Counted from the first letter of the stretch, positions 23,377 to 27,048 are shown. The stretch: DNA of 53,672 nt from Shigella phage vB_Shi_2KOFFS (PV615261); one strand, 5' to 3'. The notes: a model not told the origin generated them from the letters alone. Numbers and translations are program-made.

Positions 23377-26300
23377 ATGGCTAATAACATAAAAGATTTG
23401 ATGAGAATGTCCGAAGCCGAATTGATTGGCTTAGGCGCTCAATATGGTCTGTCGTTCAATCCAGGTATGCGCAAACGAGATATGGCACAGCAACTTGAAT
23501 CAAGTGCTGCATCTGGTTGGATGGAAACAAATTCGCAGCTTATGGAAGAAACCCATACAGAAGATGATGGCATCTCTTATGGCACTTCCGACATGATTTC
23601 AGATTCAGCCCACATTGCACAGATGATTTCTGGCGCTGGGCTGACTGAAACATTCCATGCTGCAATGAACGGTCCAAGTCACCATGTAGAAGCTATCCAT
23701 GCCTACATGGAGAAATTAGGTGTATCCGCCGATGATGTGTGGATGCACATGCCCAAAGCAAACCCGAACAAACCGGAAGGTCATTGGGGAATGCTTAATG
23801 CGTACATGCGTGATACGCTGACAGGTCATCAAGATATAATGCCAGAGCTTCCTGGACATTATTCAGGCGACATTATGGGCGAGTACTCCACAAACCGTGG
23901 AGATATTGCCAAGTCGTTCGGCTATCTTGCCCACATGTATGTTGACCGTGAACAATACGACAACCCAGACCGCTATGCACGAGATGTTTATCGTGTAGCC
24001 AAACGTTTAGAATCAGAATTGCCGCAAAACTTCCGAGAAGTTGCTGCTGTATCTGCAATGAATGTAGGAAATAAGTCGGGGCCAAAACTTTCATACATGG
24101 ATTCATTGCCTAAACTTGGCTCTGAATCAATTGTTAGTGGTATCCAACACCCTCGACAGCCACTTAACGCATCTGGTTTACCACTTGGTTCATTTGGCAG
24201 CGGTATTAATGCCGAATACTCATTATCTGCATCCTTATCTGGCTCGCCAGGCTGGTCTGATGTAAGTAGGACTCTGTACCAAGATGTTTCTAGCGTAGTT
24301 AAGTCTGCGGCAAAGGTCTATTCTGGTGATTCTGAAAGAGGGATGAGTGCACACCGCACTCAATCTTCTGACAGAGATTTGATTCTTGATTCTGCTTCCC
24401 GCTATGCAGACATTATAGATGTTCGTTCTGGGTATGAGAATCTTAAGAAAGATATTGGCGACGACCCTCGCTACTCTGGTGCATCCATCCGTGGTGTTCT
24501 TGAGAATGCTCACCAATATAATGAGGCAGAAGTAAGCAAGACATTTGACCCTGCTGAACGCTTAAGAAATACTGAACCTGCCGAACTAAGTCCTTCAACA
24601 GAGTTTATTACGCAACTCGATTCACCAACGAGTTGGAACTCTGCTCGCGCTCGTCGTGAGAGTATTGCTATATCTAACTTGGACTCTGCTCCACAACCAG
24701 CTCCGAAAGAAGGCCCAATCCATTATCACAACATGGAACAGGGAACTCAGGAATGGTTGGACTTCCGCAAACAATACGACATTACTGGCTCCACTGTTGG
24801 TTCGTTTCTTGGTAACAATGAATACACCCGACCTTGGGCTGCAATGATTGATAAAATTGGCCTACAACGCGGAAAGGGGCCAAGTGAATTTACTAAAAGA
24901 ATGTTCGAAGCAGGTCATCGGACGGAAGAAATTGCTCGTAACCGTGTCGCCAAAGAGTTTGGATTCGATATCGAGCAAGCTGGCGCAATAACAAATGACA
25001 ATTATCCGTCGTTCATGTATTCTCCAGATGGCCTTATCGGTGATGACGCGATTTGGGAACACAAGAATCCTGAAAGGGCTAAAAAGTTTTCTAATCTCTC
25101 TGCTGGCGAGCATAAGGACTATTTCGACCAAATTCAATTTGGCTTGCTTGTATCTGGCCGTAGTCGTGCACTGTTCTCTCAGACAATCGGAGACAAGACG
25201 GTATCTGAGTGGATTGAGAAAGACGAGGGATGGTACGAGCGCAACAAAGATAAGATTGATTCTACTATTGGGCGTCTCAATGCTGGTCGAAAGTTTGTTG
25301 AAGATAATCCAGACTTACCTAATGATGAATTAATCAAGGGTGCTCGTGCTGCAATGACTGGCGATGGCATCTGGAAGGATGTTAAGCAAAGGTCAACTCG
25401 TGGATATTCTGCCGCAGCTGGAACACCTGATGACCCATTCATAGGCAACCGCACTGATGCTGGAATTGGTGAGGCCACGACTTCTGCCGTAGGCTCTGAC
25501 AGCACGACTGGCAACGACTCGATGGCAGTATCTGTCAAGAAAGGTATTCTTGCTGCACAGGAAGAAAACAAACTGCGTGGACAAGATGCTGACTTTGGTG
25601 GAAATGATGGTCGTGGTGGCGGTGGTGGCTTCTGGGATACTTTCGATGCCAGCAGTTATGGTATTAGCGGAGGTGGTTCTGGTGGCGGCGGTCGTGGTGG
25701 TTGGAGAGTTGGCGGTAGCTTCTCAGATGACTTCGGTCGTGCTGGTGGGGCATTGGCTGCTGGCGTAGCTGGTGGCAGCATTGGTTCATTATCCAATGGC
25801 GCAATGAATGCCCTCATGATGACTCCTTGGGGTCGTGTAGCTGGCATGGCTATTGGTGCTGCCCAGATTGGTAATGAAGCTCTGGAAGGTCTGAACGACT
25901 TCTACGGCAATTCTTTGGATGCTGGTGTTAATAATCCTAACGAATATTCTTCCATGACTCAGGGCATGGAAATGTTGGGACTTAACTCACAACAAGCCAA
26001 TCGACTCAATCAAACCACACATAGTGCCTATAACACCCTCCTAAATGGCGACCCCAGCGGCGCTGTGAACATCGTTCAGGGAACCCGTGGCCTTATCACA
26101 ATTGGCGACATTCGTGCGGCACAGGGCGACCCTGTGGCCCTAGCGCGGATAATGCGTGAGCGTGGTCAGGAACGGGGTTGGAGTCAGGCCCGTATTGCTG
26201 GTGCAATGCAGATGGCTGGTCTGGACGGTATGGCTCGTGCCTATGACCGCACAGAATACAGCATGGGCGAGGCTGAGGCGAACGTTAAGCGCGGAGCCGA

Positions 26301-27048
26301 CTCAAACTATGCCGAAGGCGTTGCACAACTAGGAATCGCGCAGACGGAGCGTGCTGGTGTACTGCCTGGATACGCTGTTCCGCAAGCTGCAATCTCATAC
26401 GGCAGCACCTTTATTGAGGCAGGTGGCGATGCCGCTAGAACGATGCGTGTGGCCTCCAACGGTACAGCCGATGCAGCACGTAATGTTTATGACTTTATCG
26501 CAGGAGAAGAGTCAGGGAACCGCGATTTTAACGCAGATGGTTCGGTAGTTACATCGCCAACTGGTGCTAAAGGTCGTATGCAGGTTCTTGATTCAACTTC
26601 TCGTGACCCTGGCTTTGGTGTTCGTCCTGCCAAAGATAACTCACTTGAAGAACGTGCCCGTGTTGGTCGTGACTATTACGATGCAATGCTTAAGCGATAT
26701 AATGGTGACGCTGAGAAGGCTATGGCGGCGTACACAGATGGTGCCGGAACTGTTGATGATGCTATCAACAAACATGGAACCGACTGGCTGAACGCTGTTC
26801 CACTACAGGCACAGAACCGTGTCAAGAAGTACCGCGAATGGGCTTCTCAGGGAGATTCTATTGCAGAAGGTGCAACTGGATTCACCAGAAACGGACTGTC
26901 CTATGGTCAGACACAGCCCACCATAGTTAACGTTGAAGTCAAAGCTACCGTGAACAACAAACAAGCGTCTGCAACCGTGTCAACTCCGAACGGTCAAACT
27001 GTTACCCAAACAATCAACATGGGTAATGGTGCAATGGAACGCAGATAA
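23377..27048 (+). CDS. tape-measure-position multidomain protein with lambda-Exo/YqaJ-like nuclease domain, Gly-rich linker and lytic transglycosylase (SLT) domain
   Basis: 1223 aa; nuclease motifs EQGTQEWLDFRKQYDITGS, YSPDGLIGDDAIWEHKNP, YFDQIQFGLLVSGRS (about nt 24727-25296); Gly-rich nt 25588-25776; SLT motif EESGNRDFNADGSVVTSPTGAKGRMQV (about nt 26494-26706). Confidence 0.7.
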   Translation: MANNIKDLMRMSEAELIGLGAQYGLSFNPGMRKRDMAQQLESSAASGWMETNSQLMEETHTEDDGISYGTSDMISDSAHIAQMISGAGLTETFHAAMNGPSHHVEAIHAYMEKLGVSADDVWMHMPKANPNKPEGHWGMLNAYMRDTLTGHQDIMPELPGHYSGDIMGEYSTNRGDIAKSFGYLAHMYVDREQYDNPDRYARDVYRVAKRLESELPQNFREVAAVSAMNVGNKSGPKLSYMDSLPKLGSESIVSGIQHPRQPLNASGLPLGSFGSGINAEYSLSASLSGSPGWSDVSRTLYQDVSSVVKSAAKVYSGDSERGMSAHRTQSSDRDLILDSASRYADIIDVRSGYENLKKDIGDDPRYSGASIRGVLENAHQYNEAEVSKTFDPAERLRNTEPAELSPSTEFITQLDSPTSWNSARARRESIAISNLDSAPQPAPKEGPIHYHNMEQGTQEWLDFRKQYDITGSTVGSFLGNNEYTRPWAAMIDKIGLQRGKGPSEFTKRMFEAGHRTEEIARNRVAKEFGFDIEQAGAITNDNYPSFMYSPDGLIGDDAIWEHKNPERAKKFSNLSAGEHKDYFDQIQFGLLVSGRSRALFSQTIGDKTVSEWIEKDEGWYERNKDKIDSTIGRLNAGRKFVEDNPDLPNDELIKGARAAMTGDGIWKDVKQRSTRGYSAAAGTPDDPFIGNRTDAGIGEATTSAVGSDSTTGNDSMAVSVKKGILAAQEENKLRGQDADFGGNDGRGGGGGFWDTFDASSYGISGGGSGGGGRGGWRVGGSFSDDFGRAGGALAAGVAGGSIGSLSNGAMNALMMTPWGRVAGMAIGAAQIGNEALEGLNDFYGNSLDAGVNNPNEYSSMTQGMEMLGLNSQQANRLNQTTHSAYNTLLNGDPSGAVNIVQGTRGLITIGDIRAAQGDPVALARIMRERGQERGWSQARIAGAMQMAGLDGMARAYDRTEYSMGEAEANVKRGADSNYAEGVAQLGIAQTERAGVLPGYAVPQAAISYGSTFIEAGGDAARTMRVASNGTADAARNVYDFIAGEESGNRDFNADGSVVTSPTGAKGRMQVLDSTSRDPGFGVRPAKDNSLEERARVGRDYYDAMLKRYNGDAEKAMAAYTDGAGTVDDAINKHGTDWLNAVPLQAQNRVKKYREWASQGDSIAEGATGFTRNGLSYGQTQPTIVNVEVKATVNNKQASATVSTPNGQTVTQTINMGNGAMERR

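Follow-up and report, generated by a model that had tools for sequence, protein, structure and literature searches.

The length of a tail tape-measure protein (TMP) scales with the length of the tail, at about 0.15 nm per residue. Cell-wall hydrolases are known from TMPs, and the fate of these proteins after ejection, including their entry into the cytoplasm, is debated, especially for contractile-tailed phages. That enzymatic domains can be embedded in TMPs is an established principle (PMC1796659). In Pseudomonas phage Pa193 (Pbunavirus), studied by cryo-electron microscopy, gp41 is an 858-residue TMP in a 130-nm tail, with a segment resembling soluble lytic transglycosylases (SLT) and a carboxy-terminus that forms a trimer bound to the tail tip (PMC11456595); in the model put forward by its authors, the TMP lies unfolded in the 37 Å-wide lumen, exits carboxy-terminus first and refolds into a peptidoglycan hydrolase and a channel (PMC11456595). 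The TMP of phage 80alpha is a trimer with its amino-termini at the neck, next to the DNA end, and its carboxy-termini on the baseplate, and it is thought to be ejected as a pilot protein (PMC11661146). Here, 53,672 nucleotides of Shigella phage vB_Shi_2KOFFS (PV615261) are analysed, the whole of which is called the window; they represent the genome, complete or nearly so, of a myophage of the Chaseviridae (Cleopatravirinae). Its gene for a 1223-residue protein in the tape-measure position encodes, besides an SLT domain, a domain of the lambda exonuclease (lambda Exo)/YqaJ family. Peptidoglycan hydrolase domains in TMPs being already well known, what is new here is that the embedded enzyme is a DNA exonuclease.

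The lambda-Exo/YqaJ domain and its conservation

The open reading frame (ORF) that a first-pass annotation had reported at 23377..27048 of the + strand was found exactly as described, with an ATG start and 1223 codons for amino acids. Linkers of low model confidence and poor conservation (residues 381–444 and 664 onward) lie on both sides of the nuclease domain; its position and its key residues, the latter assigned by alignment and each present in 84 of 84 homologues, are:

24709..25356, + strand: residues 445–660, lambda-Exo/YqaJ PD-(D/E)XK exonuclease domain (PF09588; matches to PDB entry 3syy and to lambda Exo; AlphaFold2 (AF2) model)
24766..24768, + strand: R464, equivalent to lambda Exo R28, 5'-phosphate pocket (codon checked)
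24925..24927, + strand: E517, equivalent to lambda Exo E85, catalytic/metal set, in the GHxxE motif
25027..25065, + strand: D551 to E561-H-K563, equivalent to lambda Exo D119, E129 and K131, catalytic/metal set
Y582, equivalent to lambda Exo Y154, in the Y..Q motif
Q585, equivalent to lambda Exo Q157, in the Y..Q motif

The ordered lambda Exo/YqaJ signature claimed by the first-pass annotation is present, with EQGTQEWLDFRKQYDITGS at residues 454–472, where it had been placed, YSPDGLIGDDAIWEHKNP at residues 548–565 and YFDQIQFGLLVSGRS at residues 582–596. Its numbering of D551, E561 and K563 is also correct, window positions 25027–25065 translating to DGLIGDDAIWEHK. The Pfam comparison it had proposed returns the YqaJ family (PF09588) at residues 459–595 with an E-value of 2.2e-12 and a score of 47.9 bits against a cut-off of 22, and the match spans profile positions 1–149 of 150. 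RecE-like exonuclease families of PHROG match residues 438–636 at 4e-19 to 7e-14. Against the sequences of the PDB, the single sequence retrieves LHK-Exo (3syy) at 2.5e-6, and a profile of 40 family members retrieves LHK-Exo at 2e-16 and lambda exonuclease at 5e-7.

The fold comparison that had been suggested points the same way. All structures described here are predicted, from AF2 monomer models of residues 1–700 and 681–1223. The nuclease domain is modelled with a predicted local distance difference test score (pLDDT) of 85–96, and in Foldseek it matches the lambda-Exo-type fold: LHK-Exo 3syy with an E-value of 9e-8, a template modelling (TM) score of 0.77 and a root-mean-square deviation of 3.8 Å over 201 columns, and lambda Exo with TM scores of 0.63–0.68. 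For residue equivalences, lambda Exo (a sequence 100% identical to PDB entry 6m9k_A over 226 residues) was aligned to the domain through 97 free-standing YqaJ proteins.

Invariance was counted over 84 full-length homologues of 41–100% identity, aligned with MAFFT. Residues Q455, G456, W460, R464, T470, G513, H514 and E517 are the same in all 84, as are Y548–G555, W560–K563, P565, Y582, D584, Q585, Q587 and G589. The density of invariant positions is highest in the nuclease domain (24%, versus 0–15% elsewhere in the protein), and the ratio of non-synonymous to synonymous substitution rates (dN/dS) in comparison with Yersinia phage PYps23T is 0.10, i.e. the domain is under purifying selection. 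A degenerate or inactive nuclease was rejected on residue invariance and dN/dS. Judged from its sequence, the nuclease domain is complete, with active site and 5'-phosphate-binding arginine intact, and it is likely to be active.

In alignments, residue M453 is paired with Met1 of LHK-Exo, and the match to free-standing relatives starts within their own first 1–10 residues; for this reason an entire gene for a 5'-3' double-stranded DNA exonuclease of the lambda-Exo/YqaJ type appears to have been inserted in-frame into the TMP gene. A conserved internal start for a separately made nuclease was ruled out, since family members vary at position 453 (L, F, M or I).

The fusion is widespread. There are 87 clusters of homologues, nearly all of 1197–1279 residues, with both PF09588 and PF01464, in sequences of about 52–54 kb. 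Full-length homologues occur family-wide, down to 45% identity, in phiEcoM-GJ1, ST32, flopper and 4HA13, and further in Erwinia phage Y2, Pectobacterium phages PM1 and PP101, Proteus phage Myduc and Aeromonas phage phiA050. The 3672-nucleotide gene region is 98.4% identical to that of Escherichia phages PO103-1 and Ecp_YSF and 86–88% identical to that of Yersinia phages PYps23T, 3T and 4T. A 65.7% identical homologue is recorded for 'Staphylococcus phage Pel53' (PP952070.1, host S. hyicus), in what looks like a coliphage-type Chaseviridae genome, so that the named host may be mistaken.

The nuclease domain alone, used as query in an exhaustive HMMER search, gave 1158 matches at E <= 1e-3, ranked as the Chaseviridae family first, then more distant proteins of 960–1530 residues that have the domain at a corresponding relative position, then ordinary exonucleases of 200–300 residues. 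Seven distant large proteins were scanned with Pfam: both YqaJ and SLT are found in P0095, P0096, P0099 and P0110, YqaJ only in P0094 and P0157, and no Pfam match in P0107. The closest isolate relatives of the metagenomic P0094, P0095 and P0099 are Chaseviridae, at 27–33% identity, and the genes for P0094, P0099 and P0157 lie directly 3' of Phage_TAC_15 in tail modules of this kind. Among the fold matches in the BFVD are large proteins of two Nefertitivirinae, Aeromonas phage pAh6.2TG and Shewanella phage Spp001. Because the fusion of nuclease and TMP is kept at the same place in such distant relatives, it is both old and specific to this gene position.

Three other features of the distant relatives may be recorded. 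Metagenomic contig L008 has, at 17583–18629, a gene for a 348-residue protein with a RelA_SpoT domain (PF04607), inserted in the baseplate cluster between the gene for a PF18352 protein and that for the sheath initiator. In L013, 2.8 kb without a called gene (3909–6669) separate the chaperone gene from that of a 962-residue YqaJ protein, and a PAAR-motif gene is present in the baseplate cluster (13239–13535).

Traces of both enzymes exist in the databases. The 2007 record of phiEcoM-GJ1 already notes the transglycosylase ('probable T4 gp5 analog; contains hypothetical transglycosylase domain'), and the YqaJ match is present, uncommented, in precomputed Pfam tables, one record carrying the label 'putative endonuclease'. 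A literature search of incomplete coverage found no description of a nuclease in a tape measure.

Tape-measure identity and the other regions of the protein

The tail module of the window runs in the order terminator (PF23961), sheath, tube, Phage_TAC_15 (PF21822), the 1223-residue ORF and baseplate hub, in agreement with the first-pass annotation, which had placed the gene after the tail assembly chaperone and before the baseplate genes. The elements around the gene are:

20821..22269: sheath (PF11863), upstream of the 1223-residue ORF
22279..22734: tube, between sheath and chaperone
22750..23208, + strand: tail assembly chaperone, 152 residues, zero-frame product (PHROG 11820, 7.6e-58; Pfam Phage_TAC_15, 1.1e-14)
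23106..23112, + strand: heptamer T_TTT_TTC within the chaperone gene, a slippery site for -1 programmed frameshifting, the -1 frame opening right after the TGA at 23103–23105
23106..23384, + strand: -1 frame extension of the chaperone, 92 codons, G/GT-like long form, open to the TAA at 23382–23384
23377..27048, + strand: tape-measure-position gene, 1223 residues (PHROG 19855, E = 0)
27116..28222, + strand: baseplate hub gene, directly downstream of the 1223-residue ORF (PHROG 196 baseplate hub, 2.8e-46)

Chaperone genes of the G/GT type are arranged directly 5' of tape-measure genes. In the window, the -1 extension reaches 8 nucleotides into the 1223-residue ORF and overlaps its ATG; the ORF is marked as the TMP gene because the frameshifted chaperone extension ends on its start codon. 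The heptamer T_TTT_TTC occurs at the same place in phiEcoM-GJ1, Erwinia phage Y2 and Proteus phage Myduc, and the carboxy-terminal sequence of the extension (KYFLHRPVIEDSSLC..LQDGTYS..DLL.FH.ILDLR) is kept across four genera. Annotation of the frameshift is missing from every relative inspected (L004 1224–1502, L005 1148–1489, L006 1214–1501); the records of phiEcoM-GJ1 and Myduc give the -1 extension as separate small hypothetical ORFs, and that of PO103-1 lacks the chaperone gene altogether.

There is no other tape-measure candidate in the window, in which the 1223-residue ORF is the only one of more than 730 residues; it is thus the only plausible tape-measure gene of this Chaseviridae myophage. 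Some records annotate homologues as TMP or virion structural protein, and the full-length match to PHROG 19855 (E = 0) is to a family named 'virion structural protein'. The homologue in phage 4HA13, 64–66% identical to the window protein, is called 'tail tape measure protein' (128 kDa); it was detected using liquid chromatography–tandem mass spectrometry, with 64–67% coverage, and gave the second most abundant signal. Presence of the window protein in virions is suggested through this homologue only. A fused ORF or assembly artefact was ruled out, a single uninterrupted ORF being present in 84 full-length homologues from independent assemblies.

Downstream of the hub gene, the tail module continues with Dit-like (PF21821), Pam3-plug-like, sheath-initiator and Baseplate_J-like/wedge genes. 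Farther upstream, a head protease/scaffold-like gene would, in its longest possible frame (15988–17226, from a TTG at 15988), share about 200 nucleotides with the portal gene (14877–16193); the corresponding overlap in the annotation of PYps23T is 149 nucleotides.

The protein has a mass of 131.6 kDa, an isoelectric point (pI) of 5.16 and no cysteine. It is acidic throughout, except that its last 63 residues and the Gly/Ala segment are basic. The 80alpha TMP is, unlike it, positively charged (PMC11661146). Outside the nuclease the following regions can be distinguished:

23377..24516, + strand: residues 1–380, amino-terminal region of mostly short helices (AF2 pLDDT about 70–92 for residues 76–380)
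24517..24708, + strand: residues 381–444, low-confidence, poorly conserved linker (pLDDT <50; 0/64 positions invariant)
25357..25731, + strand: residues 661–785, variable linker with a Gly-rich run (30 Gly in residues 701–800; pLDDT <50)
25732..25881, + strand: residues 786–835, Gly/Ala-rich, weakly hydrophobic segment (dN/dS 0.019, the lowest in the protein)
25882..26346, + strand: residues 836–990, conserved all-helical domain (pLDDT 88–96)
26479..26856, + strand: residues 1035–1160, SLT (GH23-type) lytic transglycosylase domain, catalytic E1045-S1046 (PF01464; profile; Foldseek)
26857..27045, + strand: residues 1161–1223, basic carboxy-terminal tail (pI 9.7; three short low-confidence strands)

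The SLT motif named by the first-pass annotation is borne out: EESGNRDF... begins at residue 1044, and the codons of E1045 and S1046 were checked. The Pfam search it had called for gives SLT (PF01464) at residues 1058–1134, with an E-value of 1.2e-6 and 28.5 bits against a cut-off of 21.3, and the profile of 40 family members matches Slt of P. aeruginosa at 8e-5, MltD at 1.3e-3 and the SLT region of T7 gp16 at 0.016–0.021 among PDB sequences. Residues E1045, S1046 and Q1069 are kept in 83 of 84 homologues, and A1118, Y1119 and G1122 (the AAY..G motif) in all 84. The domain is modelled with a pLDDT of about 93 for residues 1035–1160. Comparison with the lysozyme-like fold agrees with this assignment, more weakly than the sequence matches: Foldseek gives probabilities of 0.96–1.0 to Slt and MltD and 0.99 to T7 gp16 (9jyy_I), all with weak E-values.

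The amino-terminal region matches no Pfam family (E <= 10) apart from a sub-threshold Rho_N/HeH-like hit at residues 7–37 (E = 0.13), and Foldseek finds no fold match for its model in the PDB. The Gly-rich linker said to follow the nuclease is found, with its run at residues 745–776 approximately; the linker region 661–785 has the highest gap fraction in the family alignment. Residues 876–950 of the all-helical domain are among the two most conserved stretches of the protein, with 0.76–0.80 identity per 25-residue block. Residues 836–990 as a whole match no Pfam family (E <= 10) and no assignable PDB structure in Foldseek, and they may form the true core of this family of tape measures. The carboxy-terminal tail, likewise without a Pfam family (E <= 10) or a PDB match by Foldseek, is by analogy with the carboxy-terminus of the Pa193 TMP a candidate hub- or tip-binding end.

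Proposed delivery of the nuclease and alternative roles

The functions put forward by the first-pass annotation (genome end processing, recombination or counter-defence) could be narrowed by context only. We give an even chance to the reading that the nuclease is delivered within the TMP at entry and acts on linear double-stranded DNA ends. Three copies of the protein would be largely unfolded in the lumen of the tail tube, with their carboxy-termini on the baseplate hub and their amino-termini toward the DNA end. Upon contraction, the carboxy-terminus would exit first and the SLT domain would cut peptidoglycan, after which the Gly/Ala-rich segment and the conserved helical domain would engage the inner membrane. 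The amino-terminal half, with the nuclease, would exit last, just ahead of the genome, and would refold in the cytoplasm, possibly as a lambda-Exo-like trimer, to work on linear double-stranded DNA ends before phage gene expression. The order of the domains from carboxy- to amino-terminus would thus match that of the barriers: hub, peptidoglycan, membrane and DNA end. Packing appears feasible, because three copies would fill about 34–40% of a lumen 37 Å wide and 110–130 nm long; for Pa193 the figure is about 25%.

The most likely substrate would be the direct terminal repeats of about 3 kb of the phage itself, the resection of which could either allow annealing for circle or concatemer formation or leave ends that are poor RecBCD substrates. 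In the window, no direct repeats of at least 40 nucleotides were found in a search of its whole length; the terminal repeat is collapsed in the assembly, which hides the true genome ends, and the structure of the ends is therefore taken from relatives. These have direct terminal repeats of 3.1–3.2 kb (4HA13; Myduc, NC_048803.1, 1–3202). In Myduc, an RNA polymerase gene is located inside the repeat.

Other DNA-processing enzymes are encoded as well, the window containing an ATP-dependent DNA ligase, a FEN-type 5'-3' exonuclease (PHROG 107) and two HNH endonucleases:

8595..9656, 9668..10192, 10182..10937 and 763..1233 of the window: FEN-type exonuclease, two HNH endonucleases and ligase (listed jointly)

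In relatives, the replication set is T7-like and comprises a FEN-type exonuclease of its own, an HNH endonuclease and a ligase; a RecBCD inhibitor of 47 residues is annotated in Myduc. In these relatives, exonuclease, endonuclease, ligase and inhibitor are made only after entry. The most specific form of the proposal is doubtful: that the TMP is a vectorial delivery device and the lambda-Exo-type nuclease the first DNA-processing enzyme known to be injected through the tail lumen within a TMP, three copies refolding as a ring on the leading genome end and resecting the repeats of about 3 kb before gene expression, driving circularisation or concatemer priming and denying RecBCD a substrate.

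Several points weigh against delivery with the genome, beginning with the tape-measure identity itself. None of the Pfam TMP families matches the 1223-residue protein. Outside the nuclease, the AF2 models consist of short helices packed into domains and of disordered linkers, with no long coiled coil, a monomer prediction that may differ from the state of the protein in the lumen. A length of 1223 residues predicts a tail of about 183 nm versus 110–132 nm observed in the family, too long for a textbook TMP. Without the YqaJ and SLT domains, 881 residues remain, which predict about 132 nm, and phage PP101 has a 1279-residue homologue and a 132-nm tail; the excess length may be accounted for by the inserted enzyme domains. 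The 4HA13 preparation used for mass spectrometry also held the non-structural single-stranded DNA-binding protein and hence was not virion-pure, and retention of residues 445–660 in mature virions is an assumption.

The path into the cell meets further difficulties. The protein contains no canonical transmembrane helix, the best 19-residue Kyte-Doolittle mean being 1.02 (in residues 786–835); as this maximum is below the usual cut-off of 1.6, the segment is called only a candidate for membrane interaction. A folded lambda-Exo-type domain is too big for the 37 Å lumen, so that refolding after ejection must be assumed, and no part of the TMP of a myophage is known to enter the cytoplasm. A single-strand annealing protein is neither annotated in PYps23T and Myduc nor found among ten scanned window proteins, many small early ORFs lying outside that scan. 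Moreover, since a separate exonuclease, HNH endonucleases and ligase are encoded, together with the RecBCD inhibitor in Myduc, an end-processing enzyme carried by the virion may be unneeded.

The alternative that survives best, though unlikely, accepts the TMP but has the nuclease act late, with abundant unassembled TMP serving in the cytoplasm as an exonuclease for recombination, replication or degradation of host DNA and the domain in the virion being an inert spacer or only a passenger. As a structural gene, it is late and highly expressed, the 4HA13 homologue ranks second in mass-spectrometric signal, the conservation of the catalytic residues fits any enzymatic role, folding in the cytoplasm of the producing cell needs no refolding step, and a myophage TMP is so far not known to enter the cytoplasm. 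However, the replication module of the phage already has a dedicated 5'-3' exonuclease, and fusion to a protein that chaperones sequester for tail assembly would be a strange route to an enzyme of the cytoplasm. The fusion is also kept at the same position in relatives of only 27–33% identity, and its linkage to the TMP itself therefore seems to be selected.

It is quite improbable that the nuclease fold is mainly a DNA-end-binding or plug module, which would hold or protect the leading genome end in the neck and at entry, as injected end-protection proteins do, with minimal or regulated catalysis. The amino-terminal part of the TMP is beside the DNA end in 80alpha, the 5'-phosphate pocket residue R464 is invariant and there is the weak HeH/Rho_N-like hint at the extreme amino-terminus, but E517, D551, E561 and K563 are invariant in 84 of 84 homologues, residues that pure binding modules usually lose. 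In addition, the domain is located about 450 residues from the amino-terminus, between long linkers, and must be unfolded in the lumen.

An offensive role is decidedly improbable, in which the injected nuclease would attack competing linear DNA (of co-infecting phages, linear plasmids or broken host DNA) or nucleic-acid intermediates of defence systems. Contractile injection systems can carry nuclease effectors, delivery before gene expression would suit counter-defence and the nuclease is intact. Yet enzymes of the lambda-Exo type require a double-stranded DNA end, of which the host chromosome has none, and only about three copies would enter per infection. No match to the PADLOC library of defence proteins or to an anti-defence family was found, no search aimed at one having been made.

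That the gene is not a TMP gene, being either an artefact in which separate genes are fused or, as several GenBank records have it ('putative tail fiber; probable T4 gp5 analog', 'tail tube initiator', 'tail fiber'), the gene of a tail fibre or of a puncturing protein like T4 gp5, is scarcely credible, given its place directly after the frameshifted chaperone gene, the separate hub, plug and fibre genes downstream, the lack of a second TMP candidate in the window, the single uninterrupted ORF in 84 full-length homologues and the conserved protein start (M1 and K6 invariant in 84 of 84; A2 at least 90% conserved in a 40-sequence alignment).

A nuclease for which cytoplasmic DNA is the only plausible substrate, with its catalytic residues intact family-wide and in distant relatives, makes the question of TMP entry testable, and easily grown coliphages are available for such work (phiEcoM-GJ1, ST32, flopper and PO103-1). 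If the nuclease is delivered at entry, it would represent a new class of virion-borne activity at the start of infection, for genome-end processing or counter-defence, and if delivery is true in its novel form, the amino-terminal half of a myophage TMP would be proven to reach the cytoplasm. The subject is relevant to candidates for phage therapy among the Chaseviridae and to the engineering of protein cargo delivered by tails, and also to annotation, the gene now being labelled tail fibre, tail tube initiator, TMP, virion structural protein, putative endonuclease or hypothetical.

Comparison with known systems

The nuclease domain has the same predicted fold as lambda exonuclease (Red-alpha) and LHK-Exo of Laribacter hongkongensis (PF09588; PDB entries 1avq, 3sm4 and 3syy). 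The ordered motifs EQG..W...R...IT.S, G.xxE, SPDG...E.K.P and Y..Q.Q are common to them, and each key residue of lambda Exo has an identical equivalent in the window domain. Lambda Exo and LHK-Exo are free-standing proteins of about 200–230 residues that belong to recombination modules, usually beside an annealing protein, whereas the domain described here is embedded at residues 445–660 of a 1223-residue tail protein, its trimeric ring and its activity being putative.

For Pa193 gp41, which belongs to a tail of similar length and likewise has an internal SLT-like segment, no nuclease has been reported, whereas the Chaseviridae protein, at 1197–1279 residues, has a nuclease and a larger amino-terminal region; the position of the Pa193 gene after a chaperone gene is presumed by analogy. 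The window and the metagenomic relatives of its tape measure have four tail Pfam families in common (PF23961, PF11863, PF21822 and PF21821), and those relatives also carry the head/neck families Pa193_gp24 and E217_gp27. These Pa193- and E217-named families tie the tail module to the Pa193/E217 phage group; the TMPs themselves show no sequence link when the family profile is run against PDB sequences. T7 gp16 and the TMP of mycobacteriophage TM4 resemble the window protein in having an SLT-type domain within a polypeptide that exits the particle before the DNA does, but they carry cell-wall enzymes only, with no DNA nuclease reported.

With regard to the proposed role, one counterpart is gp44 of 80alpha, a virion protein that enters with the genome and handles linear ends before gene expression, as would the nuclease in the TMP. 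Mu N and T4 gp2 are likewise injected virion proteins that handle genome ends. All three protect or join the ends by binding them and are neither PD-(D/E)XK exonucleases nor parts of a tape measure; the likeness proposed here is one of role.

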